Counted from the first letter of the stretch, positions 14,233 through 41,340 are shown. The stretch is DNA of 45,515 bases from an uncultured Candidatus Peribacteria bacterium (GCA_964494435.1 CAZBSN010000001.1:1-45515); one strand, 5' to 3'. Notes: generated by a model from the sequence alone, not told the origin. Numbers and translations: made by a program.

Positions 14233-14234
14233 CC

Positions 14235-23828: not shown

Positions 23829-24985
23829 AGATCCTCGTTCTCACCGACGACCTGCCGCCTGCCGTCCTCGGCGGGTCCGGTCGCATTGCATGGGAAACGA
23901 GTCTGGGACTCGTACAACGTGGGCATGACGTGACGATCCTGACGGCCGCTCAAAGTGGTGTCTTCTCGGAGAAAAAAGATGGCGTGCACATTCGAACAAT
24001 AACGCAACTTGATCAGCGATGGGCGCACTACCGCAGCGTTTTTTCGCGAAAGCGGCAAATGGAGGTGCTGCGTGTCGTCGATGAAGTGCAACCGGACCTC
24101 ATTCATGCGCATGGACTCGCGTGGCAGCTTGGCTATCGGTGGATCAAGCCTGCAACCCAGCGCGGCATCGCGATCGTCCATACGTTCCACGGCGTCATGA
24201 ACGTCGCGTATGGAAAACGCTTCGGCGATGAAAAGTTTCCCCTCCTCCGCGATCTGAAACTTGCACGCTGGACGTATAACCCGCTGCGCAACATGAACGT
24301 CCGATGGGCGCTGCGACGGACGACGTTGCTCTCTGTGAGCAATGCACTCAAGCATTATCTCAAAAAGTATGGATATCACGGCGTGCAGACGCTCCATAAC
24401 GGCATCAACACCGATTTTTGGACCACAGGACCAGACAGAGAGACTGCACGAAAAGAGCTTGGTATAGCGGAAAATCAGCCATGTTTCTTGCTTGCTGGCC
24501 GCATTGGTCACGACAAGGGCATGACAATAGTGAAGGAGTCACTTCCCCCGAACGCACTCCTCCTCCTTGCAGGTGAAGGAAATGAAGCTTCATGGAAAGA
24601 TCTCGGTGACCGCGTGCGATTCTTCCCAAAACAGACTCCCGAACAGATGCGCACACTCTACGCAGTTGCAGACGCATCGCTTGTCCCCTCTCTCTATCTC
24701 GATCCATTCCCAACTGTGTGCTTAGAGTCGATGATGTGTGCCACACCCGTCATCGCGAGCATTCATGGTGGCGCAAAAGAAGCAGTGAAGGATGGAGAAT
24801 CCGGATGGATTGTGGAGCCGCGAAAGATGGAATCGTTCGCGGAGCACCTGCGCTGGTGTGCCACACATCGTGAGGAGACGGCACTCGTCGGGAAGAAGGC
24901 AAGAGTGCATGCCAAAGCACAATTCTCGCTGGAGAAACATCTGGATGCTCTGGAGAAGATTTACGCAGCGAGCAGTCGTTCGTAG
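23825..24985 (+). CDS. GT4-family (GT-B) glycosyltransferase
   Basis: 'MKILVLTDDLPPAVLGGSGRIAWETSLGLVQRGHDVTILT' and the E-x7-E region 'DPFPTVCLESMMCATPVIASIHGGAKEAVKDGESGWIV'. The track ORF from 23066 is an out-of-frame N-terminal artefact. Confidence 0.9.
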   Translation: MKILVLTDDLPPAVLGGSGRIAWETSLGLVQRGHDVTILTAAQSGVFSEKKDGVHIRTITQLDQRWAHYRSVFSRKRQMEVLRVVDEVQPDLIHAHGLAWQLGYRWIKPATQRGIAIVHTFHGVMNVAYGKRFGDEKFPLLRDLKLARWTYNPLRNMNVRWALRRTTLLSVSNALKHYLKKYGYHGVQTLHNGINTDFWTTGPDRETARKELGIAENQPCFLLAGRIGHDKGMTIVKESLPPNALLLLAGEGNEASWKDLGDRVRFFPKQTPEQMRTLYAVADASLVPSLYLDPFPTVCLESMMCATPVIASIHGGAKEAVKDGESGWIVEPRKMESFAEHLRWCATHREETALVGKKARVHAKAQFSLEKHLDALEKIYAASSRS

Positions 24986-26133
24986 AACTTCTCGTATTCA
25001 CTCGTAATAGCCTCCCAGCTGCACGAACTGGAGACGTATTCTCGCGCTCTCTTAGCCTTTTCACGAAGTGCGGAGGGATCGTTGAGGAATGCGAGGATGG
25101 CGTCAGCCAATGGTTGGAGTTGTGAGTTCGACATGCGATCCGGCGGGTCGTAGCTGCACGCTTCGTCGTGGTAGATGTCGATGAGTTGTCCATGGCGATT
25201 GTCGCGGCCCATGAGATCGATGAGACCTCCAACCTGCGATGCGATGATCGGCTTCTCCATCCCCATCGCCTCGATGCATGTGATGCTTCGCGCTTCAGCG
25301 GAGGACGGCATGAGGACAAGATCCGCATGCTGGTAGTACGGCTTCACCGTGTCGTTGTTCCGTGAGCCGAGGAGTGTGACGTGCTGCTCAAGATGTAACT
25401 CGCGAATGAGCTCTTCAATGAACGCGCGCTTGCGACCATCACCAATCGCGAAGTAATGGAAGTTCGGATTCTGTTCACGAACGAGCGCGAGGGCTTGGAC
25501 GAGAATGTGGATGCCGTTTTTTGGGACAAGGCGACGGATTGTGAGAAGGACCTTCGTTTCTGGCTTCAATGAGCCAAATTCTGGGGGCTTAGGAATTGAT
25601 GAATCAGGCTGAAAGAGGCGTGCATCGTACCCATTCGAGACAATGCTGATCTTGGAACGCGGAACAAACGCTGCCGTGAGTTCGAGGATCTCGTCGCTTG
25701 TTGAGGTGATGTGCGATGCCAGCTTCATTGAGACGTGCTGACAGAGTTTTACGAGTAATCCATGATGAAACTTGGGATGCACCTCTGGCACGATCCCCTT
25801 TCCCTGCTGCGTGAGGAGCATTGGTTTCCCGCGCAGACGACAAATGACCGCGCACATTGCCGCGATGCGGAAGGAATATGTGCAATGTGCAATGTCGTGC
25901 TCGCCGATGAGTTTCCAGAGCGTGCGAATGTTCTTCCACACAGTCGCTGGACTGAATTTCCACGGGAGACGGACAATCCCCGCTTCATCGGCAGTCGTTG
26001 AAAGCGTGTTCGTGAAGATTGTGACTTTGTGGCCTTTGAGTTTCAGTTCGTGAGCGACGTTCGCAACACAAATTTCCGCTCCGCCGACACTCGGCAGATA
26101 GTCTTCGCACGTCAGAAGGACAGACAGCGTCAT
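24961..26133 (-). CDS. GT4-family glycosyltransferase
   Basis: Start ATG 26133 forms an ATGA overlap with the upstream stop. 'LLTCEDYLPSVGGAEICVANVAHELKLKGHKVTIFT' and 'SSAEARSITCIEAMGMEKPIIASQVGGLIDLM'. Confidence 0.9.
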   Translation of the reverse strand: MTLSVLLTCEDYLPSVGGAEICVANVAHELKLKGHKVTIFTNTLSTTADEAGIVRLPWKFSPATVWKNIRTLWKLIGEHDIAHCTYSFRIAAMCAVICRLRGKPMLLTQQGKGIVPEVHPKFHHGLLVKLCQHVSMKLASHITSTSDEILELTAAFVPRSKISIVSNGYDARLFQPDSSIPKPPEFGSLKPETKVLLTIRRLVPKNGIHILVQALALVREQNPNFHYFAIGDGRKRAFIEELIRELHLEQHVTLLGSRNNDTVKPYYQHADLVLMPSSAEARSITCIEAMGMEKPIIASQVGGLIDLMGRDNRHGQLIDIYHDEACSYDPPDRMSNSQLQPLADAILAFLNDPSALREKAKRAREYVSSSCSWEAITSEYEKFYERLLAA

Positions 26134-27095
26134 GCGGGGAAGATATCGCGATGCTTCTGCAGCCACTCGTACGTCGCACGAAGCTGCGTCGGCAGATCAA
26201 TGACAGGAGCGTACCCAAGATCGCGTTCCGTGTGGGAAATGTCTGACTTTCGTCGGAAGACCGTGTCCCATGCACGCTGCTGCTTCAACTCCGTTCCGGC
26301 GCTGCTCCCTGCGATCTCATTGATCATGTCGGCAATCTCTCCGATGCTTGTTTCTTTGCCCGATCCGATGTTGTACGTCTTGCCGTTACTCTCGGGTTTT
26401 TCCGCAGCCAGAAGCGTTCCTTGGACGACGTTCTCGACGAAGTTGAAGTCGCGGGAGGCCTTCGGATCGCCCGTGATTGGGAGCGGCTTACGGGACATCG
26501 CGAGCATGAAAAAGTTCGGGATCACGTTGCGGTAACGACCGGGCATTTCACCAGGACCGAACGAGTTGAAGTACCTGAGCACCGTCGTATTCATCTTATG
26601 ATAGTCGTGGTAGAACCGGACGAGGAACTCGCCGTGCAGTTTGTTGATGGCGTACGGCGTATCGAGGTGGAACGTGACTGTGTCGACGGAGAAATCTGGG
26701 CCATTGCCGTACACACACGAAGAAGAAGAGAAGACAAATTTCGATACCTTCGCGAGGCGTGCTTGTTCCAAGACTTTCAACGTTCCGATGCTATTCACGT
26801 TGCAGTCGTCGATTGGATGCTCAACTGAATTCTGATTTGCGAAGTGTGCAGCCAAGTGGAAGACAACGTCTTGAGGGCGGCTGAATGCTTCCTTCAACGC
26901 ACTGTCGTCGACAATCGACTTCTGGATGAACGTCGTTCGTTGATCGTCCAGAATATCTTTGCTGAGAAGTGGAGAAGCAGAGCTGCAATCGTCGATGATG
27001 GTGAGAGACGCGACTCCACGCGCGAGCATCGCCCGGCACAACGCCGAACCGATCGCTCCGAGACCGCCAGTGACGAGAACGTTCTTTCCCTGCAT
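26130..27095 (-). CDS. NAD-dependent sugar-nucleotide epimerase/dehydratase (extended SDR)
   Basis: Start ATG 27095 ('MQGKNVLVTGGLGAIGSAL'). 'FSSSSCVYG' and 'YAINKLHGE' (YxxxK). Confidence 0.85.
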   Translation of the reverse strand: MQGKNVLVTGGLGAIGSALCRAMLARGVASLTIIDDCSSASPLLSKDILDDQRTTFIQKSIVDDSALKEAFSRPQDVVFHLAAHFANQNSVEHPIDDCNVNSIGTLKVLEQARLAKVSKFVFSSSSCVYGNGPDFSVDTVTFHLDTPYAINKLHGEFLVRFYHDYHKMNTTVLRYFNSFGPGEMPGRYRNVIPNFFMLAMSRKPLPITGDPKASRDFNFVENVVQGTLLAAEKPESNGKTYNIGSGKETSIGEIADMINEIAGSSAGTELKQQRAWDTVFRRKSDISHTERDLGYAPVIDLPTQLRATYEWLQKHRDIFPA

Positions 27096-27157
27096 AGAAA
27101 ACCTAAAGGCGACCCAGTGTAACACAGGCTGCTCTGGATTAAACCAGCTCTAGGGCC

Positions 27158-28246
27158 TTACAGAGGCATTTGACGCAGGATATCGACGATCCGTTCCCCC
27201 GCATGCCCGTCCCAGTATGGCGGCACGGTGATCGCGGGTTTGACCGGATGGGCTGCAAATTCGAGAACTGTTTCTCTGTCGGCCGGCACAGAGGGGTCAA
27301 TGAGCACGTTGCTGCCGCATTCGATCGTGATCGGACGCTCTGTATTGCGACGGAGGGTGAAACAGCGCTTACCGAGCAACACCGCCTCTTCCTGAATGCC
27401 CCCGGAGTCCGTGAGAAGGAACGCTGATGCCTGCATGAGACGCAGGAATGAGAGATAGGGCTGTGGCGGCAGAAGGAGAACATTCTTCGGAAGGATTTCG
27501 GAGAGATTGAATCTATCGAGTGACGCCTGGAGTCGATGATGCACTGGTAACACGACAGGGCATCGCTTGGAGACATCGGTGAGGAAGTCGAGAACTGACT
27601 TGAGCGCATGCGCATCATCCACATTGCTCGGCCGGTGCAAGGTTGCAACGGTGAATTGTGCAGGCAGTCCTTCAGGCAACCCAACATTTTCAATCTGTGG
27701 CAGCATCCGAAGCATCGTGTCGATCATCGTGTTTCCCACGAGATGCACTTCCCCCTTTGTGACGCCTTCTTCTCGGAGATTGTTCAGACCGGATTCCTCA
27801 GTACAGAACAAAAACGTGGCTGTTTTATCGACTGCAATGCGGTTCAGCTCCTCAGGCATCGTGCTGTCGAAGGAGCGAAGGCCTGCTTCGACGTGCGCCA
27901 ATGGAACCTTTGCCGTTTTACACGCCATCGCTGCTCCACTCGCACCATTCACATCGCCGTAGACGAGCACGACGTCCGGCTTCTCTGTGTTGAGAACTGG
28001 GATCATTGCCTCAGCTGTCTTCGCGATGACGTCTTCACGATCACCTCCGTGCACACCGAGGTTATGTCGCGGGAGTTGGATGTTGAGTTGCTCAAAGAAC
28101 ACATCGGAGAAGAGCGGATCGTAGTGCTGACCCGTGTGAACGATCACGTGTTCGACCGATGGATCATTGAGATTGCGAATCGCATGATCGACCGCCGCCA
28201 ATTTAACGAAGTTCGGACGAGCCGATGCGACGCTCAATATTTTCAT
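27158..28246 (-). CDS. wecB: UDP-N-acetylglucosamine 2-epimerase (non-hydrolysing)
   Basis: 'ARPNFVKLA', 'HTGQHYD', 'VLVYGDVNG', 'HVEAGLRSFDSTMPEELNR' and 'TDSGGIQEE'. Confidence 0.9.
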   Translation of the reverse strand: MKILSVASARPNFVKLAAVDHAIRNLNDPSVEHVIVHTGQHYDPLFSDVFFEQLNIQLPRHNLGVHGGDREDVIAKTAEAMIPVLNTEKPDVVLVYGDVNGASGAAMACKTAKVPLAHVEAGLRSFDSTMPEELNRIAVDKTATFLFCTEESGLNNLREEGVTKGEVHLVGNTMIDTMLRMLPQIENVGLPEGLPAQFTVATLHRPSNVDDAHALKSVLDFLTDVSKRCPVVLPVHHRLQASLDRFNLSEILPKNVLLLPPQPYLSFLRLMQASAFLLTDSGGIQEEAVLLGKRCFTLRRNTERPITIECGSNVLIDPSVPADRETVLEFAAHPVKPAITVPPYWDGHAGERIVDILRQMPL

Positions 28247-29499
28247 AGGCTTTTATTATTGTCGCGAAGCTGGGCTTTGCCCAGCTGGAGCGACTCCTTG
28301 CCGGGAAGAGAGTTCGCGAGAGAAACCCCGGAGGGGTGTCTTTCGCGATTTGAGTGTAACCCATCGAGGACGCGCTTCATCCGTTCTTGCCACGTATGAT
28401 GCTGAACGAGCGAAAGCGCTGCTTTAGACCTCTTCTCAGCCTTTGCGGGATTAGTGTGAATCCACTCAAGTGCATCAGCCAAGCTCCGCACATCTCCCGG
28501 CTTGCAGAAAATGGCGGTCTCTTCCGAAAGGACATCACGCACCGTTGGAAGATCGCTTGTGATCATCGGACGATCGGCCGCCATGTACTCAAACATTTTG
28601 AGCGGCGACATGTGTGTGCGGTAGTGCGGCAAATCCGGGAACGGCATTGCGAGGATGTCACATGCGGAGAGCGACGCAGGCACATCGGCTGCAGGAATTT
28701 CTCCGGTGAAGAGCACATCGTCTTCGGTGAGACCGAGCTTCTTCGCTTGTTGCTCATACCGCGCACGATCCCCCTCAGGTCCTCCGACAATGAACCCGAA
28801 GAATTGCTTCTGAGGTTTGAGCACAGCAAGTGCTTGGAGCATATGCGAGACGCCCTTCTCTTGTCCCAATGTCGTCAGTCGCCCGACGTAACCAACGACG
28901 AGACGATCCGTCTTGAGGTTCCACTTGGTCCTGGCTTTCGGCTGTGATGGCAGATTTTCGAAACGAGAGAGATCGACTGCATCCCCTTCTACGAAGAGCT
29001 TCTTGGGCTTCACTCCCCACTTCAGGAGCGCATCGCGCATCGGCGAAGTGAGACACGCGACTCGTGCGCAGCGATTACACTCTTGCACAAAGAGATGCCG
29101 AGCAAAGCGCGGGAGCTGATGGAGCTCCAGCACAACCGGGATATCGAGCTTGAGGAGAGACGGCAACAATGCAGGAGAGCGTGTGTAGATGAGGTCTGGC
29201 GTGTCGGCTTTGAGTAAATCTGGAAGTTTTCTTCGCAGCATTCTATTCATGCTCCAGAGTTTGAAGAATCCAAGCCATCGCGTAGCGATGTAGTCCTTGT
29301 CGCCGACGTATGTCAGCTTAATCTCGCGAGAGAGGTGTTCGTACGTCCAGAAATCCTGCTCCACGACGTTCTTACGAAACGGCGCGTAGACATGAACTTT
29401 GTGTCCAAGCTGCCACAATGCACGACAGACATGCGCGATCTGATGACCATGTGCGCGTTCGCTTGGGAGCCGTACGTTGGTGCAGTACGCGATGTGCAT
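28243..29499 (-). CDS. GT4-family glycosyltransferase
   Basis: Start ATG 29499 ('MHIAYCTNVRLPSERAHGHQIAHVCRALWQLGHKVHVYAP'). 'SPLKMFEYMAADRPMITSDLPTVRDVL'. The 3' end overlaps the wecB start (ATGA). Confidence 0.85.
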   Translation of the reverse strand: MHIAYCTNVRLPSERAHGHQIAHVCRALWQLGHKVHVYAPFRKNVVEQDFWTYEHLSREIKLTYVGDKDYIATRWLGFFKLWSMNRMLRRKLPDLLKADTPDLIYTRSPALLPSLLKLDIPVVLELHQLPRFARHLFVQECNRCARVACLTSPMRDALLKWGVKPKKLFVEGDAVDLSRFENLPSQPKARTKWNLKTDRLVVGYVGRLTTLGQEKGVSHMLQALAVLKPQKQFFGFIVGGPEGDRARYEQQAKKLGLTEDDVLFTGEIPAADVPASLSACDILAMPFPDLPHYRTHMSPLKMFEYMAADRPMITSDLPTVRDVLSEETAIFCKPGDVRSLADALEWIHTNPAKAEKRSKAALSLVQHHTWQERMKRVLDGLHSNRERHPSGVSLANSLPGKESLQLGKAQLRDNNKSL

Positions 29500-29525
29500 A
29501 CGAGACGTACAGGGTAGCAGAAAAA

Positions 29526-31136
29526 TCACCACCGCGGTCTCCAAAGACTCCATCCATCGCCCTGTTCAACACGTTCCGCGATAGCAGGGTCCATCACCCA
29601 TTCCGGCCGCTCCCGTTCATTCCAGAGAATGAGGTCGACCTGGTAATGGAGCATCGACAGCAGCGGATTCTGTAAAACATTATCGCACACACGGCGGAAT
29701 TCGGCCGTGCGCTCCGGCAGCATGTGCTGTCCGCGGAACTGGAGCGTGTGCCACGCGAGCAATTCGACATCCGCTCCGCCCGGTTGGAAGAGTTCCGCCA
29801 TACATCCTCGCGCAGCGAATTCGGCGTTCGACACGACGATGTGTTGGACATACGGCGTGAAGACGACGTCTGCCGGTGTGCGTGACTTCAACTCGATCGC
29901 GGTCACGGGATCGGTGAGGATAGTTACGCGACCAAGGTCCGTAATCGGCTCAATCGCGGAGCGGGAAAGGATCGGCGGAGGCGGGTTAATCACGAGGAAT
30001 CGCCATCCAAGTCCGTAATCCCATGCAGCGGCAGCCAACAGTATTCCCGATGCCACAAGTGCAATGATGCTCGGCCAACTGAACATCTGTGCGATCCCCT
30101 TTCGCAGCCACGCATCGATCAGTGAAGCGATACATGTCGCAGCAGCGATCGTCACCATGGGCTCGTAGTGCGACGATGAGAGAAAATCTTTTCCATGAAT
30201 GACATGCTGGTGTGTGACGACGAATCCCCCTGCCACGAACGCGAGTGGGAGCAACAGCGATCGTCGTTCGCGGGGGATCTTCCAGAAGAGCACTGCTACC
30301 GGAACGAGCGCGAGCAATTGGAGCGTAGACCGTATCGGCGATGCGATTGCGTGCGAGGGATAGAGTCCGCTTCGATAGAGAGCCATCTCTTGAAACGTCG
30401 GATCGGCCATTTGGAGGACCCATGTCGAAAGCAGCCCCGGAATGCTTAAGAGTAATCCCAAACCGCCTGCGATCGCGAGGAACCGAAGCGCTCGTGTACG
30501 TGTCTCATCTCGCACGTGCCAACGGAGGAGGAAGATAAAGCCACATGCCGCCCATGTGAATGTCCACACCCAGAAATAGAGTGATGGGAGGAGCGCGAGC
30601 AGCACCGCTGCGACGGGAATGAGTATCCATGTCGGGCGGACCGCGATGCGGTGCACGCAAGTGAGCGTGAGAACCATGAGCGGGAGCAACACACCAAGAT
30701 GCGGCCGGGACAGCACGCCAATGAGAGCGGCACTGAGGAGCGTCGAAAGGAGTAACGCAATCGGTGGACGCACTGAACTATCGCGTAGCAGGAGATAGAA
30801 CAATGGGAGAAAGAGCGGCGCGAGGAGGAGCATCACCAACGTTCCGATTTCCACGCCCGACAGAGGCGTCCACGAGAAGAGAGTCCCCTCCGTGAATTCA
30901 AGGAGCCCTGGTCCTGCCGCACGGATCTCAAATGGCGGTCCCGTGATGCCGTTTTCATACGGTCCACTTCGTCCGAGCAGCGCAGTTTGGATGCGACTGA
31001 AGTATGCGCCGTCATCTTGGAGTCGGATGGGCACATGGCCGAGCTCCACGGACCAACGAACGATAGGCGTCGCAAGCACAGCAAGGAGGAGCGCTGTGAG
31101 GAGCGGCAACGCGATCAGGACTGTGCGGCGTTTCAC
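29526..31136 (-). CDS. polytopic membrane protein of unknown family, paralog A (536 aa)
   Basis: GTG start. About a dozen hydrophobic segments are followed by a ~170-aa hydrophilic C-terminal domain. It shares blocks with the upstream gene: 'DDGAYFSR', 'ENGIT', 'LLPSLYFWVW', 'HQHVIHGKDFLSSSHYEP', 'TILTD' and 'GDGWSLW'. Confidence 0.6.
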   Translation of the reverse strand: MKRRTVLIALPLLTALLLAVLATPIVRWSVELGHVPIRLQDDGAYFSRIQTALLGRSGPYENGITGPPFEIRAAGPGLLEFTEGTLFSWTPLSGVEIGTLVMLLLAPLFLPLFYLLLRDSSVRPPIALLLSTLLSAALIGVLSRPHLGVLLPLMVLTLTCVHRIAVRPTWILIPVAAVLLALLPSLYFWVWTFTWAACGFIFLLRWHVRDETRTRALRFLAIAGGLGLLLSIPGLLSTWVLQMADPTFQEMALYRSGLYPSHAIASPIRSTLQLLALVPVAVLFWKIPRERRSLLLPLAFVAGGFVVTHQHVIHGKDFLSSSHYEPMVTIAAATCIASLIDAWLRKGIAQMFSWPSIIALVASGILLAAAAWDYGLGWRFLVINPPPPILSRSAIEPITDLGRVTILTDPVTAIELKSRTPADVVFTPYVQHIVVSNAEFAARGCMAELFQPGGADVELLAWHTLQFRGQHMLPERTAEFRRVCDNVLQNPLLSMLHYQVDLILWNERERPEWVMDPAIAERVEQGDGWSLWRPRW

Positions 31137-31145
31137 GACCCTATG

Positions 31146-32753
31146 CTACCGACTCACCTCCCACAGGGTCCATCCGCTCCCCGTTCCGATCTGCGATAGT
31201 GATGGCAGATCAGTATCTGCACGCCAATCTGGTCGATCTTTGGTATTTTCCAGAATATAGCGCACGTCATACTCACGCAGATGCTTCACGGGCTCGGCCC
31301 TCACTAGCATGCATGCTTCCGTCACCAATGACCGTTCGCGTTCGCGCATCTCTGGAGAATCGAGCACATCATTATATTCGATGTAGAGACTCCGATACGG
31401 ATCTGGGAATTCCGAGAACAGTTCCGACATACAGAATCGATCGGCCATGTCGGCATCAGAGATAAAGAGGAATCGGCTGTGCGTGGTGTAGACGATGCCG
31501 TGGTGCGTCCACGCGGTCAGCAGTCGGCCGGTCTCTTTATCTGTGAGCACAGTCGCAGGAGGAAGCTCACGAAGAATCGCGATTGGTTCAGCGAGATGTT
31601 GATCGCGGAACGTGTGACCTGGAACGACGAAGAAGAATGAGTTTAATGGGAAGTAGTCGTACGCTCCACCTGCGAGGAATGCGAGCGCAATGAGCGTAAT
31701 GATGCCCCTGCGAATGAAATCCACTCGCCGGGTCAGAACCCACGCTCCGGCAATGACGGAGGAAATGATGAGATGCGGCTCAAAGTGTGATGCAAACATG
31801 AGTACTTTCGCGTGAAGGACGTTCTGATGCATCACGAAGAGGACACCAAGCAATAGCGAAAACACGATGAGGTATGACCGATCCTGCCGGCGATCACGCC
31901 ACAGCGTTGCAAAGGTGATGCACTGGATGAGCAGCAAGATTGTGCGCGGCCATGACTCTGGTGTGCGCTCATAGAGGAAGCTGGCACGCACTGCGATCTC
32001 CGGATAGAGCGGACTCTGCATCAGTTCTGCTGTGTGCAGCAGGAAGGGCAATGCGATGAGAAGAATGAGTCCCCCACCAAGTGCGCTGAATGCAGGATGG
32101 CGAAGGAGGTAACGATCTTCCTCTTTTGCAAAGAGCGTCAGAAGGAGAAGCGTCGCGACACTCGCCCACACCCACATCCAATGCCAAAAGTAGAGTGACG
32201 GCAGGAGGCCGAGGAGTATTCCAGCCACGACAAGGAGAGGAATGCTTGGGCGTTTCCAGAGCATGAACGTTGCAAGTAGCGCTCCAATAGCTGGAATGAA
32301 CGTCCAACCAGGATGCGGCATACGTGTGATGGTCGGGAACATCACAAGAAAGAGGACGACCGCGATCCCAATGCTCCACGCACGCGCAAAACCGATCTCA
32401 CCGAGGAAGACGAGCAGTAAGAGGAACAGAATGGATGTGAATATCGCTGTGAGGATTACGGAGAGTGTCGGTGCGGAGAGACCAGTCCATTTGAAAATGG
32501 AACCAACGATAACCTCGGCTGTCGCAGATTGCATTCCTTCGATCGCAGACCCAATCGCCGTGATCCCATTGTCCGCTTCCTCTGGATGACCATCGAGAAC
32601 GCGCTCCAAGCGACTGTAGTAATTGCCGTAGTCCTTGTCTCGAATCACGGTCAGTCCCTGAAACTCAGGCTGCGTCATGTGTACGGCGTACGGGAAGAGC
32701 GTGAGCAGCCCAAATAGGACCGCAATGCCGAAGGCCAGTGTGGAAAACCTCAT
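31146..32753 (-). CDS. polytopic membrane protein of unknown family, paralog B (535 aa)
   Basis: Start ATG 32753 ('MRFSTLAFGIAVLFG'). The longer track ORF to 32894 would run into the divergent gene. Shared blocks are 'DYGNYYSR', 'DNGIT', 'LLPSLYFWHW', 'HQNVLHAKVLMFASHFEP', 'TVLTD' and 'GSGWTLW'. Confidence 0.6.
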   Translation of the reverse strand: MRFSTLAFGIAVLFGLLTLFPYAVHMTQPEFQGLTVIRDKDYGNYYSRLERVLDGHPEEADNGITAIGSAIEGMQSATAEVIVGSIFKWTGLSAPTLSVILTAIFTSILFLLLLVFLGEIGFARAWSIGIAVVLFLVMFPTITRMPHPGWTFIPAIGALLATFMLWKRPSIPLLVVAGILLGLLPSLYFWHWMWVWASVATLLLLTLFAKEEDRYLLRHPAFSALGGGLILLIALPFLLHTAELMQSPLYPEIAVRASFLYERTPESWPRTILLLIQCITFATLWRDRRQDRSYLIVFSLLLGVLFVMHQNVLHAKVLMFASHFEPHLIISSVIAGAWVLTRRVDFIRRGIITLIALAFLAGGAYDYFPLNSFFFVVPGHTFRDQHLAEPIAILRELPPATVLTDKETGRLLTAWTHHGIVYTTHSRFLFISDADMADRFCMSELFSEFPDPYRSLYIEYNDVLDSPEMRERERSLVTEACMLVRAEPVKHLREYDVRYILENTKDRPDWRADTDLPSLSQIGTGSGWTLWEVSR

Positions 32754-32820
32754 ACGCACAATACCAGTGTACCGACCACATCCCATGACAACGAGGTTTT
32801 GCATCGCTAGACTCCCGGCC
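32754..32820. promoter_or_regulatory. 67-bp divergent intergenic region (presumed bidirectional promoters)
   Basis: The strand switch between the minus block (start 32753) and the plus block (start 32821) falls here. I could not identify convincing -35/-10 hexamers. Confidence 0.3.
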
Positions 32821-33675
32821 ATGCGCAAAGAATTCCGAAACGACTCAGCTCTCAATGCCAAGGTCCAGGACTGGTGGCACAAGAACCCATTCAACTACTT
32901 CGTGGATGCGGAGGAATCCAGCTGGGAGTTCTACCGGAACATCGACCGTAAGTTCCTAAAGTGGATCCCGTTCATGCAGAACGGAGGCTATCCATTCCTC
33001 ACGCGCTACATCGACATGCACGGCCTCAAGGGAAAGAAGCTCCTGGATATCGCCTGCGGTACGGGAGTGCTCACCGAGCAGTTTGTGCGAATGGGAGCAG
33101 ACGTAACGGCGATCGACCTCACTGCGAAGGCTGTGGAGCTCACGAAGAAGCGCCTCGATCTCTATCACCTCTCCGCAAACGTCATTCAGGCCGACGCACA
33201 GAAGATGCCCTTCCCAGACAACTCCTTCGACTACGTCTGCGCATGGGGCTGCCTGATGCACATGCCGGAGACGGAACAAGCGATTGCTGAGATTAAGCGT
33301 GTGCTGAAGCCGGGCGGAAAGTTCCTCGCGATGATGTACCACCTAAACTCGGTTCACATGCGCTACGCGATCCAATTCGGACGCGGCGTCTTGCGTGGGC
33401 AGTATCTGAAGTACGACAACCAATCTCTCATGAACCGCTACACCGACGGCGCTGCAGTCGGCGGCAACATGCTCGCGAAGTTCTACACGCGAAAGGAATT
33501 TAAGAACCTCTTTGCAGGGTTCAGCGATGTGAAAGTCATGATCCACGACAACCATGGTGTTCCGAATCAGCTCCCCCACCCGTGGCTGCCACTCGGCAAA
33601 CTGCTTCCTAAGCCCATAAAAGAGTGGGTTTGCCGCACCTGGGGCATGACGGCGATCATCACGGGCGAGAAATAA
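32821..33675 (+). CDS. class-I SAM-dependent methyltransferase
   Basis: Start ATG 32821. 'LLDIACGTGVLTEQFVRMGADVTAIDLT' (motif I plus acidic loop) and 'VLKPGGKFLAMMY'. Confidence 0.85.
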   Translation: MRKEFRNDSALNAKVQDWWHKNPFNYFVDAEESSWEFYRNIDRKFLKWIPFMQNGGYPFLTRYIDMHGLKGKKLLDIACGTGVLTEQFVRMGADVTAIDLTAKAVELTKKRLDLYHLSANVIQADAQKMPFPDNSFDYVCAWGCLMHMPETEQAIAEIKRVLKPGGKFLAMMYHLNSVHMRYAIQFGRGVLRGQYLKYDNQSLMNRYTDGAAVGGNMLAKFYTRKEFKNLFAGFSDVKVMIHDNHGVPNQLPHPWLPLGKLLPKPIKEWVCRTWGMTAIITGEK

Positions 33676-33697
33676 GCAGGTGGGCTACCATACGGCC

Positions 33698-34714
33698 ATG
33701 GATAGGCGTTCTGTCGCCATCGTCGGCTTAGGGTACTGGGGTCCGAACTTGCTCCGTAACTTCGGAGCGATCGACGGATGGGAAATGCGCTGGGCATGCG
33801 ACTTGAAGGAAGCGAATTTGGCGAAGGTGCGAGCAAACTATCCAAGCGTGAAGACGACTTCGTCCTATGACGACCTCTTGAACGATGCAACGTTGGATCT
33901 CATCGTCGTTGCAACTCCCACGAAGTCACACTTTGATCTCGCAAAGAAAGCACTCGAAGCAGGCAAGCATGTCTTCGTCGAGAAACCGTTGGCGTCGTCC
34001 TCGAAGGAAGGAGAAGAATTGATCGCACTCGCAAAAACGAAAGGCAAGCTCCTCTTCGTCGACCACACGTTCGCCTTTGCCGGAGCAGTCCGAAAGTTAA
34101 AAGACTTGATGAGCGCGGGCGAGCTCGGCGAGCTGTATTACTTCGACTCCACCCGCATCAACCTCGGACTTATTCAGCCCGATGTGAACGTCCTCTGGGA
34201 TCTTGCGATCCACGATCTCGCAATGCTCGCCCAACTGAAAGATCTCAAAGGCATTAAGTCTGTCTTCGCCCACGGCAGCAGCTACCACGGCGAGCACCGG
34301 GAGATCGGGCACCTGCATCTTTCCTGGAACGACGGCTTTGACGCGCACATTCACGTGAGTTGGCTTTCACCAGTAAAGGTTCGCCAAACGATCATCGGCG
34401 GTACGAAGAAGATGGTGCTCTTCGATGACATTCACCCATCGGAGAAACTCAAGATCTACGACACGGGCATTCAGAAAGGACAATTGGGAGAGATGAAACC
34501 CGCCGACCCGCTCTTCCCGGTCTACCGTTCGGGCGATGTGCTCATTCCAAAGTTGGATACGACAGAAACATTGAGAGTGGAACTTCTCCATGTGCTCGCA
34601 TGTCTCAACGGAACGGAGAAACCAATCGTTGGAGGTGAGGACGGTCTTATTGTCCTTCATATCCTTGAAGCTGCTGACAAATCTCTCGCATCCCATTCCC
34701 CCGTCGATCTATGA
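33698..34714 (+). CDS. Gfo/Idh/MocA-family sugar-nucleotide 3-dehydrogenase (WbpB/GnnA-like)
   Basis: 'RSVAIVGLGYWGPNLLRNF' (Rossmann) and 'HVFVEKPLASS' (EKP motif). The GTG 33680 alternative is possible. Confidence 0.85.
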   Translation: MDRRSVAIVGLGYWGPNLLRNFGAIDGWEMRWACDLKEANLAKVRANYPSVKTTSSYDDLLNDATLDLIVVATPTKSHFDLAKKALEAGKHVFVEKPLASSSKEGEELIALAKTKGKLLFVDHTFAFAGAVRKLKDLMSAGELGELYYFDSTRINLGLIQPDVNVLWDLAIHDLAMLAQLKDLKGIKSVFAHGSSYHGEHREIGHLHLSWNDGFDAHIHVSWLSPVKVRQTIIGGTKKMVLFDDIHPSEKLKIYDTGIQKGQLGEMKPADPLFPVYRSGDVLIPKLDTTETLRVELLHVLACLNGTEKPIVGGEDGLIVLHILEAADKSLASHSPVDL

Positions 34715-36264: not shown

Positions 36265-36966
36265 GTGCCATCCCTCTCGATTGTCATCCCAGCCTACAAC
36301 GAAGCCGCCACGATCGCGGATATCGTGCAGCGGTGTGATGCCGTGGCGTCGAGATGTACGAACGACTACGAGGTGATTGTGATGGACGACTGCTCGAAGG
36401 ATGAGACGTCGACCATTCTCCAGAGCTTGAAACCGAAATTCCCAAAACTCCGCGCTGAGCGTCATGTTGTAAATGGCGGAATTGCGAAAACATTTGAAGA
36501 TTTATATGCACTCGCAAGCAAAGAGTACGTGTTCCTTGTGTCGGGCGACGGACAATATCCTCCAGAGCTCGTTGAGAGGTGTATGCCGCTCTTAAACGAG
36601 GCAGACATCATCATCTGCAATCGCACGACGAAGCACTACACGCTCTTGCGTCTCGTCATCTCGTGGGGCTACCGCTGGATGCCGCGAATCTTGTTCGGCG
36701 TCGATCTCTACGACTCTGGCAGCGTGAAGCTCGTTCCGCGCGAGGTGTACCAGAAGATCTCCGTGACCTCGACGAGCGTCTTTGTCGAGGCTGAGCGCAT
36801 TATTCGAGCTGCGAAACGCGGCTACAGGATAGGAAAAATCGACTTCGAGCAGGTGGAACGCAAAGGCGGCAAAGCGCACGGCGGAAAGCCATCCGTTATC
36901 TTGAAATCGATTGGCGATATGCTGCGTTGTTGGTGGGAATTGGAGGTGCTCAGACGACCGGCGTGA
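36265..36966 (+). CDS. GT2 glycosyltransferase, polyprenyl-phosphate sugar synthase-like (Dpm1/GtrB/ArnC type)
   Basis: GTG start. 'LSIVIPAYNEAATI', 'VIVMDDCSKDET' and 'VSGDGQYPP'. 233 aa with no C-terminal TM helices. Confidence 0.8.
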   Translation: MPSLSIVIPAYNEAATIADIVQRCDAVASRCTNDYEVIVMDDCSKDETSTILQSLKPKFPKLRAERHVVNGGIAKTFEDLYALASKEYVFLVSGDGQYPPELVERCMPLLNEADIIICNRTTKHYTLLRLVISWGYRWMPRILFGVDLYDSGSVKLVPREVYQKISVTSTSVFVEAERIIRAAKRGYRIGKIDFEQVERKGGKAHGGKPSVILKSIGDMLRCWWELEVLRRPA

Positions 36967-36969
36967 CAA

Positions 36970-38136
36970 CTAGACGTAAATAACGAACTTATAGAGGATA
37001 AAATTCCACGCAACCATGCATGCGATCACGAGTAATTTCGCAATGAGTTCATCCACACCCAACCCGTCCACAAATCCCCAGAGAAGAACCGTCGAAGCGA
37101 ACAGATTCCAGAGTCCCAGCATGCAGTACTTGAAAAAATGGGATGCAAATTTGGAGTGCTGACGGAATGCGACGTACTTATGAAGGAGGAACGCGCTGAT
37201 GAACCCAATGACCTCGCTCATGACGGACGCGCCGACGTACCAGACGTCCAACCACAGGAGCAGCGTGTATAACCCCACGTTGATTGCGGTCGCAGTTCCA
37301 CCTGTGAAGAGGTACGTGACGAATTGTCCAAGCGGTAGACGATGTAGCGGTGAACTTTCGACGATCAAGAGCAGTGGATACGCAAGGAATTGGAGTTCAT
37401 ATTGAAGCGGCAACCGCTTCCCTCTTCCTGGTGTGACGGACAGAGCAATAAGCCGCAGGGCAAAGCCAAAAAATGAGCGGACATTCCAGAGCAAAACCCA
37501 GTACAACCACTGGCCAAACGGGAGTCTCGCCGCACGTTCCACTTCGAGCGCGAGGTAGCGACGATACTTGGGCCAGAGTTCCGACGGCGGTGAAAGTGGA
37601 ATGAGGAGATCCCCTGCCAGATGACCGACGGTCGCACCGGGAACGAGATCCAATCGTTCATGAATCGGTTTTACGAAGTTGATAATCCTCTCTCGGCGCG
37701 CGAGACGGACGTGAAGTGCGGGGTACGCGGCAGCTCGTTCAATCTTTTCGCCATTGATGACGAAGCGGCGGAACGCCGTGTACGCGTCGTGTTTCCCAGA
37801 TGCGAGGACATCCCGAATAGATGCGAGGAATTCAGGCGTGAGCGTTTCGTCGGAGTCGACGTAGAGAAACCATGGCTGATTCGCGAGCATGAGACCGGCG
37901 TTTCTGACGGAAGCGAAGTCACGTATGCGGCCGGAGGGCTCCAAAAATTCGCGCGGCTGATCGTGAATGGCAACATTCGAAAAAGTGGACGCGATGCTGC
38001 GCGAGTCGTCTGTGGAATAACCATCGAGCACGATCACCTGGGCAAACTCTCGAAGGCCTTCAAGGCACGCAGAAATGGTCTTTCCCGCGTTATGGGTAAG
38101 AACGAGCACGCTGCAGGGAATAGGAATGGTCGTCAT
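36970..38136 (-). CDS. GT2 glycosyltransferase fused to a C-terminal GtrA-like 4-TM domain
   Basis: N-terminal 'CSVLVLTHNAGKTI', 'VIVLDGYSTDDS' and 'YVDSDETL'. The C-terminal 'FVTYLFTGGTATAINVGLYTLLL ... WNFILYKFVIYV' is the GtrA signature layout. Confidence 0.8.
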   Translation of the reverse strand: MTTIPIPCSVLVLTHNAGKTISACLEGLREFAQVIVLDGYSTDDSRSIASTFSNVAIHDQPREFLEPSGRIRDFASVRNAGLMLANQPWFLYVDSDETLTPEFLASIRDVLASGKHDAYTAFRRFVINGEKIERAAAYPALHVRLARRERIINFVKPIHERLDLVPGATVGHLAGDLLIPLSPPSELWPKYRRYLALEVERAARLPFGQWLYWVLLWNVRSFFGFALRLIALSVTPGRGKRLPLQYELQFLAYPLLLIVESSPLHRLPLGQFVTYLFTGGTATAINVGLYTLLLWLDVWYVGASVMSEVIGFISAFLLHKYVAFRQHSKFASHFFKYCMLGLWNLFASTVLLWGFVDGLGVDELIAKLLVIACMVAWNFILYKFVIYV

Positions 38137-39161
38137 GCGCCTGCGTGAACGAATCGATCCATTTTTTCTATAATTCCGTCGAGACTGTGCCGCTCTCGAA
38201 CGATCTCGTAGAGCTCCTCATCGGAAATGGGCAGTTGGTTTGTGAAGAATTGGACGACGGCAGCAATTTCGCGCGGCTCATCGGTCGCGGGAGCTGCCGG
38301 AAGCCCGATTGCTTCGGCGTTGCGCGCAGTCGTGACGGGATAACAACCGCACGTCATTGCTTCAATCATCGTCTTATCGATCGTCTCACTCGCCATGTTC
38401 AGAATGAGACGATGATTTGTGTAGATGTCTGGGAGCAGGCGCGATGCGATCGTGCCATGGAACGTGACGCGGCTCTGCAGACTGAGTACACGAACGAGTT
38501 GCTGCATTTCGATGACGTACTCAGGCTCGGCTTCAATACCGTAGATGTCGACTGTGTAGGATTCAGGAAGCAAACTCAGCGCTTCGAGGACAAGCTCCAA
38601 TCGCTTGCTTCGCGCGAGGCGTAAGACGACGAGAAGCTTATGAGGATCAGGACAATGGTTGGCTCTCTGAGGCCAATAGGAGAGATCGACGCCATGCCCC
38701 ACGATAATCTTTTTAGGACTGTGTTCGTACTGTGGAAGGCTCTGTCTCGTCGCGGCAAAGAGACGCTTTCCATAGAAACCGAGGAGCCAGAGACCAATCT
38801 GCATCTTGTAGTGCGTGTACCAGAGATAGACGGGTACACGACGGACGAGCCACACCGGCGCACCAATCGCTCCCCACACCGGCGTCATGTGAATGAAGAC
38901 TCTGTCATAGCGCATGGTGCTGATGAGCCACAGGAATCGAAGAATCTGCATAAACTTGGATGAGCCATGTTCTTTGCCGAGCGAGTGCACGTCGAATGTC
39001 GGTGGCCTTGGTCGCCCAAGAGCGGACATTGCTTCATCTGGTTGCCATTCAAGACACACGACAGAAACGTTATAGCCGCGCTTCTGCCATGCCTCGACCC
39101 ACAGGACTGTGAATGCGTCCTGTCCGTGAAGTTTCTGGGTGATGAAGAGAAGATCCATCAT
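38133..39161 (-). CDS. GT-B fold glycosyltransferase (divergent GT4/GT1-like)
   Basis: 342 aa. The C-terminal half carries the 'ASETIDKTMIEAMTCGCYPVTT' E-x7-E-like block. ATGA overlaps at both ends. Confidence 0.6.
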   Translation of the reverse strand: MMDLLFITQKLHGQDAFTVLWVEAWQKRGYNVSVVCLEWQPDEAMSALGRPRPPTFDVHSLGKEHGSSKFMQILRFLWLISTMRYDRVFIHMTPVWGAIGAPVWLVRRVPVYLWYTHYKMQIGLWLLGFYGKRLFAATRQSLPQYEHSPKKIIVGHGVDLSYWPQRANHCPDPHKLLVVLRLARSKRLELVLEALSLLPESYTVDIYGIEAEPEYVIEMQQLVRVLSLQSRVTFHGTIASRLLPDIYTNHRLILNMASETIDKTMIEAMTCGCYPVTTARNAEAIGLPAAPATDEPREIAAVVQFFTNQLPISDEELYEIVRERHSLDGIIEKMDRFVHAGA

Positions 39162-40264
39162 GCGATCGATTGAAGAAATCTCGCGTAGCGTGCAATGGAG
39201 GTGTCTCGTTCGTGTTGTTCGGTGATGTGCATCGCATTATTCCCGATCGTTGCACGAAGTTCTGGGTTCGCGAGGAGCGGACGGATCACCTCTGCAAATG
39301 CTTCGGGTGTGCTCTCGGCGAGGAATCCATTTTGTCCGTGGACAATGACATCGGGCATGACGCCGACCTTCGTCGAGACAACGGGCAACCCCAACATCAT
39401 CGCTTCGAGGGCGACTCTAGGACCGCCTTCGCTGAGTGATGGCTGGACGAAGATTCGAGCAGATTTCATCATGCGCAGAACATCCTCCGGCCTCGGCAGC
39501 CACCCGCGGAATGTGACTCTGGGAGACACTCCAAGACTCCTTGCGAGAGCCTCCCATTCCGCGCGTTTGGGACCATCGCCAATGACAACGAGCGTCGCAT
39601 GTGGCAGGAGCTGTAACGTGCGGAGGATCAGCGGCAGATTTTTGTTGGCCACGAGCCTGGAACAGAACGCGAGATCGACTGACTGTGGAACGTCGCCAAC
39701 TGTATCGCGCATTCTGGTATCGAGATAGAACGATGGCACGACGTGAATGAGCGACTGTTGCACACCCCACTGCTTCAGATGATCCACCATTCCCTTATTG
39801 ACGACACGAACCGCTTGGAAACGTTTCGTGAGCCACGGAAGTTTGATACGTGAGAGGATACGAGCGACATGCTCCTGTGTTGTTGCGGCAACGGGAGAGC
39901 CAACGATGTGATGCACTTCGATCGAAACAGGGATCCCCGTCTTCTTTCTCAGCCGCAACGCACCCCACGCATGATGGAACGGCGGCGACGCCTGTACGGT
40001 TGCGACCTTGTGCCCGTAGCGCTTCACCAAGTCCGTGCCAAACCGTGACACCCAACCAGAATGACGCAGCATTCCCACGGGAGCCGGGTGCATGTGGACG
40101 TTTTCTGGAACAAGTTGCCTCCATGCTTCGCAATTGCCGGCGATAAACGGACAAAGAACGTCGATACGCTCGAAGTGCTGACTCAAACCTTGAAGCGTCA
40201 CCAGAAAGGGCCCTCGTTTTCCTGCAACGACAGCTCTATCGCCTGTGATCATTAGTAGGTTCAT
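39158..40264 (-). CDS. GT4-family glycosyltransferase
   Basis: 'PSLSEGGPRVALEAMMLGLPVVSTKVGVMPDVIVHGQNGFL'. Confidence 0.85.
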   Translation of the reverse strand: MNLLMITGDRAVVAGKRGPFLVTLQGLSQHFERIDVLCPFIAGNCEAWRQLVPENVHMHPAPVGMLRHSGWVSRFGTDLVKRYGHKVATVQASPPFHHAWGALRLRKKTGIPVSIEVHHIVGSPVAATTQEHVARILSRIKLPWLTKRFQAVRVVNKGMVDHLKQWGVQQSLIHVVPSFYLDTRMRDTVGDVPQSVDLAFCSRLVANKNLPLILRTLQLLPHATLVVIGDGPKRAEWEALARSLGVSPRVTFRGWLPRPEDVLRMMKSARIFVQPSLSEGGPRVALEAMMLGLPVVSTKVGVMPDVIVHGQNGFLAESTPEAFAEVIRPLLANPELRATIGNNAMHITEQHERDTSIARYARFLQSIA

Positions 40265-41340
40265 AACAGGCTGGAGAAGAGCGACAGATGTTCGTGAGCG
40301 AGTGTATCCCAGGTTCGTTCTGGAATGGCTTCCGCTGCGCGTAGAGCGAGTGTGTCGTAGCGCCCTCGAACATCCTCCACCGCTCGCGCGATGTCCGCAG
40401 GCGTGCGAAGTGTGGCTGTCACCATTCCATCAAGTAATGCTCGACTCAGGCCAGTTTCTTGCGTGAGAAGTACGGGCAAGCCCGCTGCACGAGCCTCCAG
40501 AGCAGCATTCGGGCTGATATCCGTGAAGGATGGCAGAACGAACAGATCGTGCTCTCGCAGAGCTTTTTCCTTCGACTCGCCGTGGAGTGGTGGAAGAAAC
40601 GTGACGCGCGAGGAGAGATCCAATTCTGCAACATCTGAACGAAGATTGTTTTCGACCGGCCCCTGTCCCACGAGTGTCAGAGTTGCGTTGGGAATGAGTT
40701 CGAGAGCTTCGATGAGCGATGAAATATTTTTAAACGCCACAAAGCGACCGAGGAAGAGGAGTCGAAACGGTTCATGTGGAGTGTGACGAACTGGCTGCAT
40801 CGGTGGAATGACGTTCTCAACAACCTGTGCAGATGGAAGATCACGATAAATCTTGCGATAGAGCTCTTCTTGGAACGTCGTGGAGAAAATAATCGCATCG
40901 AACGTCTGGAAGAGACCGTTGATGGCGCCCATGAACATCGGCGTGTTCTCATACCATTCGCTCAACCCCTTTGCCTCTCCGCGATCCGTCGCACGCTCCC
41001 ACAAGAAATCCCCTCCCAGTCGCAACACGGTCTTCGGTCTGCGTAGATGTGCCATCCAGAGTGGAACACCGACGCTCACCGGTGAGAAGCATTCCACGAT
41101 ATCCGCATCCTTTGCGATCATACGAAGAGTACGGGCATAACGGATGTACCGGACGATGGGCCCGCCGCTGCGGGAGACTCTCACTATGCCGTTCTTGTGG
41201 TCATCATGGTGTGGCAACCCGTAGGTGATGACCTGAACAACATGCCCCTGCAATCGCAGGACGTGCGAAAGCTCGCGCACGTAGGTCGCCGGCCCCCCAA
41301 TTTCAGGAGGATAGATACCCGTGGCGAGCACGATCTTCAT
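40261..41340 (-). CDS. GT4-family glycosyltransferase
   Basis: 'MKIVLATGIYPPEIGGPATYVRELSHVLRLQGHVVQVITYG' and 'PSFTDISPNAALEARAAGLPVLLTQETG'. Confidence 0.9.
   Translation of the reverse strand: MKIVLATGIYPPEIGGPATYVRELSHVLRLQGHVVQVITYGLPHHDDHKNGIVRVSRSGGPIVRYIRYARTLRMIAKDADIVECFSPVSVGVPLWMAHLRRPKTVLRLGGDFLWERATDRGEAKGLSEWYENTPMFMGAINGLFQTFDAIIFSTTFQEELYRKIYRDLPSAQVVENVIPPMQPVRHTPHEPFRLLFLGRFVAFKNISSLIEALELIPNATLTLVGQGPVENNLRSDVAELDLSSRVTFLPPLHGESKEKALREHDLFVLPSFTDISPNAALEARAAGLPVLLTQETGLSRALLDGMVTATLRTPADIARAVEDVRGRYDTLALRAAEAIPERTWDTLAHEHLSLFSSLL

Follow-up and report, generated by a model that had tools for sequence, protein, structure and literature searches.

Which gene products act on the outer side of the membrane is the question raised by a glycan locus of 45 kb and ~40 genes from an uncultured Candidatus Peribacteria bacterium (GCA_964494435.1 CAZBSN010000001.1:1-45515; the whole 45,515-nt stretch that was analysed is referred to below as the window). 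Two adjacent genes at positions 29526 to 32753, here termed A and B, encode membrane proteins that are the only candidates there for this outside-membrane step, and an initial annotation made from the sequence had proposed that they form an extracytoplasmic glycosyltransferase or polymerase pair. A GT-C fold and an outside location of the conserved first loop speak for the glycosyltransferase half of that proposal, and the polymerase option gained no specific support. We consider it rather probable that A and B are two catalytically competent extracytoplasmic GT-C glycosyltransferases that use polyprenyl-phosphate-sugar donors, working within a three-component or multi-component glycosylation system.

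Both genes lie on the minus strand. Gene A (29526..31136) encodes 536 aa from a GTG start at 31136, and gene B (31146..32753) encodes 535 aa from an ATG at 32753 and ends in a TAG stop at 31146-31148; the 9-nt spacer between the B stop and the A start (31137..31145, minus strand, CATAGGGTC) was read from the sequence, so that the tandem arrangement, lengths and spacer given in the initial annotation agree with the open reading frames (ORFs). The two genes, 9 nt apart, are probably co-transcribed, B before A. The B ORF extends upstream to a TTG at 32894 (582 aa) and the public call begins at 32804 (552 aa), but the ATG at 32753 is favoured because the orthologues are 531-537 aa long and because B, if extended further upstream, would run into the divergently oriented gene for a methyltransferase. 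The paralogy that had been noticed by eye is real, since BLASTP aligned A and B over 515 aa at 30% identity and 47% positives with E=1e-51, far beyond chance; likewise, both genes are considered real because orthologues of 57-61% identity occupy conserved synteny in other genomes. Each of the sequence blocks originally reported as shared was found in both proteins and is kept in their homologs, specifically the first-loop block (DDGAYFSR in A, DYGNYYSR in B), ENGIT/DNGIT, LLPSLYFWxW, HQxV[IL]HxK....[SA]SH[YF]EP, T[IV]LTD, and G[DS]GW[ST]LW.

Sequence searches gave the pair no family. Pfam returned no match for A or B at E≤10, and a Pfam scan of 50 close family members gave chance matches only, with PMT_2 in none of the 50; among 68 more distant members, weak PMT_2 matches were obtained for six, the best at E=9.6e-4. 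NCBIfam gave only noise for A and B, the sole trace of a Wzy being Wzy_O6_O28 at E=0.91, and sequence searches of the PDB with phmmer for each protein and with the 50-sequence profile found nothing. The earlier failure to assign the proteins to Wzy, to WaaL-type ligases, or to a named GT-C family was thus repeated with Pfam, NCBIfam, and PDB sequence searches, and no profile of Wzy_C/O-antigen ligases, PMT_2, STT3, or any transporter family matched. As judged from these searches, A and B belong to a sequence family outside Pfam, NCBIfam, and the chain sequences of the PDB. A literature search for GT-C enzymes or oligosaccharyltransferases in the candidate phyla radiation, Patescibacteria, or Peregrinibacteria yielded nothing relevant.

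The family itself is sizable. A word-indexed search recovered 11 relatives of A and 43 of B, for which "hypothetical protein" was the only name carried, and when 1.84 billion representatives of clusters at 50% identity were searched exhaustively with a HMMER profile, 974 of them matched at E≤1e-3, with 115 reaching E≤1e-30. For residue-level comparison, 118 members were used, comprising 50 close and 68 distant ones, with pairwise identities down to ~15-30%; in the distant group (alignment A2), homology extends from end to end and takes in the C-terminal domain (hhalign probability 100%, E=2.8e-63). When species-representative genomes were scanned with one conserved peptide pattern, 39 loci came up, every one of them from a metagenome-assembled genome (MAG) that carries the label Peribacteria, Peregrinibacteria, Patescibacteria, or, for a single locus, Uhrbacteria.

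Structure prediction proved more informative about the class of protein. The AlphaFold2 model of B, built from the 50-sequence alignment, had a mean predicted local distance difference test (pLDDT) score of 93.9 and a predicted TM-score (pTM) of 0.92, and consists of eleven long transmembrane (TM) helices followed by a mixed α/β C-terminal domain of ~170 aa. The hydrophilic C-terminal domain of that size had been anticipated in the initial annotation, whereas its "about a dozen" hydrophobic segments come to 11 TM helices in the model. When the model was compared with the PDB by Foldseek, the top 25 matches were all GT-C enzymes (probability 0.90-1.00, TMq 0.33-0.53), including STT3 of yeast and human oligosaccharyltransferase (OST), PglB, DPY19, AftA, ArnT, AftB, ALG3, and EmbA/B/C. 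The lowest E-value was that of STT3 (2.4e-7; ArnT, 5.9e-4) and the highest TM-score that of AftA (TMq 0.53). The GT-C core has been described as 11 TM helices with an α/β-sandwich C-terminal domain over the active site (PMC10265970), and A and B, going by the model, look like this minimal core with nothing added. The C-terminal domain of B, modelled separately, likewise matched C-terminal domains of GT-C enzymes, with every other fold at a probability of 0.2 or below.

The structure check therefore returned a GT-C fold and not a transporter. That A and B might be transporters, flippases, or scaffold proteins of glycan export, without enzymatic activity, is an idea invited by polytopic membrane proteins of no recognised catalytic family; it was rejected because the first unrelated folds (amino-acid transporters and G-protein-coupled receptors) appear at noise level, with probability ≤0.16, and it is further opposed by a pattern of conservation that falls on Asp, Arg, and His residues in outside loops and on the soluble domain, not on a TM pore. 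We regard it as extremely unlikely. Structures of WaaL or Wzy were absent from the 50 fold matches listed, which reached down to E=0.51.

The orientation of the proteins follows from charge. With helix boundaries taken from the model, Lys plus Arg per residue amounts to 0.213 in the predicted inside loops and 0.077 outside, and the short N-terminal tail of B is basic; an N-in, C-out topology is deduced from both. The conserved acidic loop is thereby placed outside the cytoplasm, as the initial annotation had supposed. This first outside loop spans residues 27-93 of B (~67 residues), carries helices at 40-53 and 78-90 in the model, and holds the motif RDKDYGNYYSR (R38-R48; 32610..32642, minus strand), which contains D41, Y45, and R48; its alignment equivalent in A is RLQDDGAYFSR (30993..31025, minus strand). 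The C-terminal α/β domain of B comprises D366-R535 (31149..31658, minus strand), and alignment with B places the corresponding extracytoplasmic domain of A at about residues 370-536 (29529..30029, minus strand).

Conservation is concentrated on this outer side. In the 50-sequence alignment, the invariant polar residues are D41, Y45, N62, E80, R144, R256, and S267 in the first half and H309, Q310, H323, D366, Y367, D405, T423, C441, and C481 in the later part (the C-terminal domain containing D366, Y367, D405, T423, C441, and C481), and all of them lie in outside loops, at outer helix ends, or in the C-terminal domain. The two invariant cysteines, C441 and C481, fit an oxidising, extracytoplasmic location. 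Across all 118 members, the residues kept in ≥85% include D41 (98%), Y45, R48, R144, R256 (100%), H323 (98%), T416, and R439, with D41, Y45, and R48 conserved in 92-98%; the second outside loop carries R144 and no acidic residue. Protein A retains every family-invariant residue except E266, which is Ala in A and in its closest orthologs, and since both proteins retain the conserved core residues, both are probably active.

In AftA, a catalytic Asp lies on the first long loop and an Arg binds the donor phosphate, the residues concerned being D128, R132, and R415 (PMC10265970). The family shows the arrangement described for AftA and other GT-C enzymes, with an Asp where the first loop helix begins and with Arg and His in outside loops further along. 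The earlier remark that the acidic first-loop motif recalls the GT-C Asp loop is therefore borne out by the fold and by the presence of D41 in 98% of the 118 members, the catalytic role itself being suggested by analogy. Following AftA, ArnT, and PglB, D41, in the motif D-x-x-x-Y-x-x-R on the first loop helix, would activate or position the acceptor nucleophile, and R144, R256, and H323 on other outside loops would hold the phosphate of a polyprenyl-phosphate-linked sugar donor.

The donors could be supplied by enzymes encoded beside the pair. The initial annotation had pointed to a polyprenyl-phosphate-sugar-synthase-type GT2 and a GtrA domain at 36265-38136, and both are present as described. 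A 233-aa soluble GT2 of the DPMS/ArnC/GtrB/AglJ type (36265..36966, plus strand) had PDB matches to DPMS (5mlz, 1.5e-9), ArnC, and GtrB, and matched the NCBIfam models for dolichyl-phosphate hexose transferase and AglJ over most of their length at scores below the cut-offs; it is a candidate second polyprenyl-phosphate-sugar synthase. Next to it, a GT2 is fused to a GtrA/DPMS-type domain of four TM helices (36970..38136, minus strand; Pfam PF00535 plus PF04138, E=9e-20), making it a candidate polyprenyl-phosphate-sugar synthase with a possible flippase role. Between these genes and the pair lies an amino-sugar module on the plus strand, consisting of a GFO/IDH/MocA oxidoreductase resembling UDP-N-acetylglucosamine (GlcNAc) 3-dehydrogenases (33680-34714), a hexapeptide N-acetyltransferase (34711-35175), and a DegT aminotransferase (about 35100-36260) directly upstream of the 233-aa GT2. 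Downstream of the GT2-GtrA gene follow three GT4 genes (38133..41340, minus strand), taken as the enzymes that assemble the glycan in the cytoplasm within the conserved block; two more GT4s lie further downstream, past a dehydratase and a NUDIX gene.

From this gene context, a pathway can be proposed in which the GT2-GtrA/DPMS-type enzyme and the 233-aa GT2 would load sugars on undecaprenyl phosphate at the cytoplasmic face, one of the sugars probably being a 3-acetamido derivative of GlcNAc made by the oxidoreductase, aminotransferase, and acetyltransferase. The GtrA-type module or another flippase would flip the lipid-linked sugars, and A and B might then each transfer one of them to the GT4-assembled glycan on the outer side of the membrane.

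The arrangement is widely kept. Neighbourhoods were fetched to ±10 kb around family members and are designated by locus number. The block GT4, GT2-GtrA, GT2, DegT, acetyltransferase, GFO/IDH/MocA <> B, A, GT4, 2-epimerase is complete in L001 (the complete 1.24-Mb Peribacteria genome CP082927.1), L002, L004, and L007, and parts of it recur in L005, L006, and L008-L010. The GT2-GtrA fusion stands beside the pair in L001 and L002 (by Pfam) and in L004, L005, L007, and L008 (by near-full-length tblastn), the same six loci in which GT2, GtrA module, and GT-C genes are kept together. The amino-sugar module is syntenic in L001, L002, L004, and L007 and partial in L005, L006, and L009. On the other side, the GT4 and 2-epimerase genes follow the pair in L001, L002, L004, L007, and L008, and follow A in L009; in the window, these two genes (28243-29553 and 27158-28246, minus strand) belong to the B-A transcription unit, which continues through an NAD-dependent epimerase/dehydratase (26130-27125) and ends with a further GT4 (24961-26166), so that the part beyond the pair covers 24961..29553. 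Homologs of the pair thus occur in glycan loci, and so does the distant member P0137, which adjoins a 236-aa GT2, two PMT_2 proteins, a Wzx, a Wzy_C protein, and a phosphoglycosyltransferase. A local expansion of the family was seen in the Peribacteria MAG loci L011 and L012, where the four members present within 21 kb (about 1600-16700) comprise a B-type gene, an A-type gene on the other strand, and two distant A2-like ones.

When the family members from the fetched loci were placed in a neighbor-joining tree, an A clade and a B clade emerged, each with the same eleven genomes, along with two further clades that were single-copy. Because the A and B clades hold the same genomes, the duplication predates the divergence of these eleven, and the pair is kept in the same gene neighbourhood in at least 11 Peribacteria species; an old and stably kept duplication points to two distinct donor or acceptor specificities. 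Nine positions cleanly separate the two clades, six of them in the C-terminal domain, five of these at 420-427 around T423, which hints, at the level of sequence, that this domain contributes to A/B specificity. Strict A-versus-B specificity positions were also sought in the catalytic loops, and that idea was set aside because nine positions are too few for a firm conclusion.

The same duplication could reflect an obligate A-B heterodimer like Pmt1-Pmt2 or EmbA-EmbB, acting as a processive polymerase that lays down alternating linkages from two lipid-phosphate sugars. The long retention of a tandem, 9-nt-spaced arrangement, the two adjacent candidate lipid-sugar synthases, and the failure to find a Wzy-type polymerase in the window would suit such a complex. 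However, the two genes are ~2.7 kb apart in L009 and ~0.65 kb apart in L010, on opposite strands in L011 and L012, and in reversed order in L008; many related genomes have a single family member in the fetched neighbourhood, and the five to seven GT4s argue for conventional cytoplasmic assembly of a repeat unit. An obligate heterodimer is for these reasons considered decidedly improbable.

Several observations nevertheless count against two single-sugar GT-C transferases fed by dedicated synthases. The TM-scores to solved GT-C structures are modest (0.44-0.53), and profile alignment with hhalign gave a probability of <1% against E. coli ArnT (from NC_000913) and, against a PglB alignment, 6% for the N-terminal half and 0.7% for the C-terminal part, the PglB profile being shallow because the PglB homologs listed were all from Campylobacter. 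These non-significant alignments pair D41 with the PglB catalytic D56 and R144 with PglB R147, and set the family consensus dDe.yYlAR..EV on PDETRYAEISREM (PDETRYAE) of ArnT; the pairings are consistent with the fold assignment and do not amount to proof of it. On the side of gene content, the GT2-GtrA fusion has a GT2 domain whose sequence is generic, with GmaR and SunS as its best PDB matches. L008 keeps both A and B, but neither the amino-sugar module nor the short GT2 lies within 10 kb of them, a point that weakens any strict 2:2 match between synthases and transferases. The GT2s next to members of the distant single-copy clades are generic ~265-aa proteins without GtrA; the notion that a lipid-sugar-synthase-type GT2 always accompanies the family was dropped on this account, and the link to lipid-phosphate-sugar synthases is firm only for the pair-bearing loci. 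Finally, the candidate coding ORFs of ≥150 aa scanned in the window included no Wzx, Wzy, WaaL, LCP, or priming phosphoglycosyltransferase (Bac_transf, MraY/WecA), and a 45.5-kb window with no ligase, LCP, or priming phosphoglycosyltransferase leaves room for en-bloc transfer.

En-bloc transfer is the substance of a further explanation, under which A and/or B would act like an OST and pass a pre-assembled lipid-linked oligosaccharide to a surface-layer protein, pilin, or other acceptor; the GT4s would build the glycan, perhaps after an AglJ-like GT2 had primed it on polyprenyl monophosphate as in Euryarchaeota, and an ABC (ATP-binding cassette) exporter would flip it. Besides the gaps in the window just listed, the presence there of a PglK/MsbA-like ABC exporter and the match of the short GT2 to positions 3-196 of the 293 in the AglJ model, below the cut-off, are in keeping with this route, as is the weak alignment that sets the conserved Asp and Arg on their PglB counterparts. 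The best full-length fold matches, moreover, are STT3 and PglB, and the C-terminal 164 residues of B modelled alone with AlphaFold2 (mixed α/β, pLDDT 91.9) matched only OST C-terminal domains, that of AglB-S2 first (probability 0.98, TM 0.44-0.47) and STT3 subunits next (0.77-0.93), all others reaching ≤0.2. This last match was considered as proof of OST function and then given less weight, since AftA, AftD, ArnT, PglB, AglB, and eukaryotic enzymes all have such an α/β core, which makes it generic to GT-C enzymes (PMC10265970).

The other details fit an OST poorly. There is no WWDYG; only D366-Y367 is invariant in the close family, with W and G present in a minority, and AWDYG, which occurs in A only and was tried as a relic of the motif, was rejected since W and G are not conserved in orthologs and DY is lost in the wider family. 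The second loop lacks an acidic equivalent of DxD, the TM helices number 11 and not 13, Pfam gave no STT3 match at E≤10, and hhalign against the PglB family reached only the 6% cited above. The best TM-score belongs to AftA, a single-sugar transferase, and up to four paralogs per locus, as in L011 and L012, are more typical of GT-C enzymes that elaborate glycans. An OST-like role of A and/or B is on this evidence unlikely. A more particular version would make the family a minimal OST relative (11 TM helices plus core domain) specific to the candidate phyla radiation, with an archaeal-style route of DPMS/AglJ-like priming on polyprenyl monophosphate that needs no phosphoglycosyltransferase in the locus, GT4 extension, ABC flipping, and en-bloc transfer by A or B to protein or cell wall, and with [IV]LTD...T replacing the WWDYG binding site. 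We judge this combination, taken as a whole, quite unlikely; if true, it would add a new type to the bacterial OSTs, and in a lineage that ranks among the least understood of the bacteria.

The preferred assignment of A and B as two extracytoplasmic GT-C glycosyltransferases leaves the rest of the window to be described. Divergent from B, a gene for an S-adenosylmethionine-dependent methyltransferase is listed at 32677..33675 (plus strand), and a methyltransferase occupies the same place in L004-L006. The two ORFs overlap head to head at 32677-32894, and because the listed ORF overlaps the B start, the true start of the methyltransferase is probably at 32785 or 32821; with these starts and that of B at 32753, the divergent intergenic region measures ~30-70 nt.

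The initial annotation had described the locus as free of any polymerase, ligase, or extracytoplasmic transferase. For polymerases and ligases this held among the ORFs scanned, but the window does encode other functions that act outside the membrane or across it, namely a DltB-like MBOAT (2636-4096, plus strand) with a single-TM partner following it, and a fused ABC exporter of the MsbA/HepA/PglK type (7452..9287, plus strand). The partner is a 421-aa protein without a family match (3988-5253, plus strand) that has one N-terminal TM anchor, a large outside domain, and a DltD/AlgX-like look; MBOAT and partner together (2636-5253) imply that a surface polymer is O-acylated or D-alanylated outside the membrane. 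The ABC exporter may flip or export a lipid-linked glycan and is loosely associated with the pair, a 49%-identical homolog being found near a family member in L025. Another candidate flippase is a membrane protein of the EamA/DMT family (5312-6265, plus strand), a superfamily that includes the undecaprenyl-phosphate-sugar flippase ArnE/ArnF. Three ORFs were considered as hidden polymerases or ligases and rejected: that at 21520-23199 has one weak hydrophobic segment, that at 5833-7284 has none, and the 421-aa protein has only its N-terminal anchor. The window encodes ~10 glycosyltransferases and, in place of the polymerase, ligase, and priming families missing from the scanned ORFs, two DPMS-like GT2s.

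A complete nonulosonic-acid pathway of the legionaminic/pseudaminic type lies at 9305-21523 (plus strand), with two NeuB paralogs (9305-10291 and 16325-17533), NeuC, a PseB/LegB-like dehydratase, a PseC/LegC-like aminotransferase, a PglD-like acetyltransferase, and a cytidylyltransferase, and within it a WbuX/HisH/WbuZ trio for acetamidino modification (12436-14993, plus strand), all three above NCBIfam cut-offs. Together, these genes represent an unusual metabolic investment for a small genome of the candidate phyla radiation. Between the nonulosonic-acid genes and a GT4, a 559-aa soluble protein without a Pfam or NCBIfam match (21520-23199, plus strand) is a candidate nonulosonic-acid transferase. 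The adjacent 639-aa ORF (23066-24985, plus strand) has an Arg-rich N-terminal extension of ~250 residues without a domain, followed from residue ~255-270 by GT4 domains (M254, MKILVLTDD), and its real start is probably near 23825. In L001, genes for a heptosyltransferase (Glyco_transf_9), a PfkB kinase, a nucleotidyltransferase, and a phosphatase (ADP/GDP-heptose synthesis) were noted at 18795-21632, ~7-10 kb from the pair.

To our knowledge, there is no experimental information on which glycans the bacteria of the candidate phyla radiation carry on their surface, although the chemistry of that surface is central to the biology of organisms believed to live attached to other cells. What is new here is the sequence family, confined to Peregrinibacteria as far as was seen, together with its minimal architecture, the GT2-GtrA fusion partner, and the long-lived tandem pair; enzymes of this kind and systems built on this logic are well known, so the finding adds to existing knowledge and does not overturn it. 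Should activity be demonstrated, a new CAZy GT family would be established, as happened with GT136. Mechanistic studies would gain a compact GT-C enzyme reduced to the minimal core, and many Peregrinibacteria proteins now listed as "hypothetical" could be annotated.

Among known systems, the three-component or multi-component transmembrane glycosylation systems (PMC11127046, PMC8035078), such as GtrA-GtrB-Gtr*, CsbB-GtcA-YfhO, GtlA-GtcA-GtlB, and ArnC-ArnE/F-ArnT, have the parts list that lies side by side in the window: a candidate GT2 polyprenyl-phosphate-sugar synthase, a GtrA-family membrane module, and a GT-C enzyme. The arn operon offers a further parallel in its order of aminotransferase, (formyl/acetyl)transferase, and GT2 near a GT-C enzyme. 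In L001, a formyltransferase gene (Formyl_trans_N/C; 5929-6771, minus strand) stands between the aminotransferase and acetyltransferase of the amino-sugar module, which strengthens the likeness to arnA/arnB/arnC. The window differs from these systems in that GtrA is fused to a GT2, in that two GT-C paralogs accompany two GT2s, and in its host, a bacterium of the candidate phyla radiation; by Pfam and NCBIfam, A and B also fall outside the GT-C families used there (PMT_2, YfhO, and GtrC types). For the proven Gram-positive GT-C enzymes YkoS, CsdB, GltB, and GtlB of serotype 4b, the Pfam domain is given as "none" as well (PMC8035078).

Of the individual enzyme families, ArnT/PMT_2 (GT83/GT39, PF13231) shares with A and B an acidic motif at the start of loop 1 followed by an aromatic and a basic residue, but differs by the lack of a PMT_2 match for A and B, by the hhalign probability of <1% already given, and by a C-terminal domain that is much more conserved in A and B. 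STT3/AglB/PglB (GT66, PF02516) gave the lowest E-values with the full model and the only confident matches of the lone C-terminal domain, and archaeal AglB-S2 has a comparably minimal one, with crystallised globular chains of 153-162 residues; A and B differ from this family in having no WWDYG, DK/MI, or DxD, in having 11 instead of 13 TM helices, in the absence of an STT3 profile match, and in their strand-end motif, which is [IV]LTD. By TM-score, the closest enzyme is AftA (Rv3792, CAZy GT85, PDB 8IF8), the priming arabinofuranosyltransferase of mycobacterial arabinogalactan. Its sequence showed no similarity to A or B when the PDB was searched by sequence and by profile, it has two extra N-terminal TM helices (13 in total), and it is actinobacterial, with a donor synthesis (decaprenyl-phosphoryl arabinose [DPA] from phosphoribosyl pyrophosphate [PRPP]) unrelated to the GT2s of the window. 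What AftA shares with A and B is the 11-TM GT-C core, the α/β C-terminal domain, the loop-1 Asp with a nearby Arg, and the Arg for the donor phosphate (PMC10265970), and its use of a polyprenyl-monophosphate single-sugar donor with a glycan acceptor is the mode of action proposed here for A and B.

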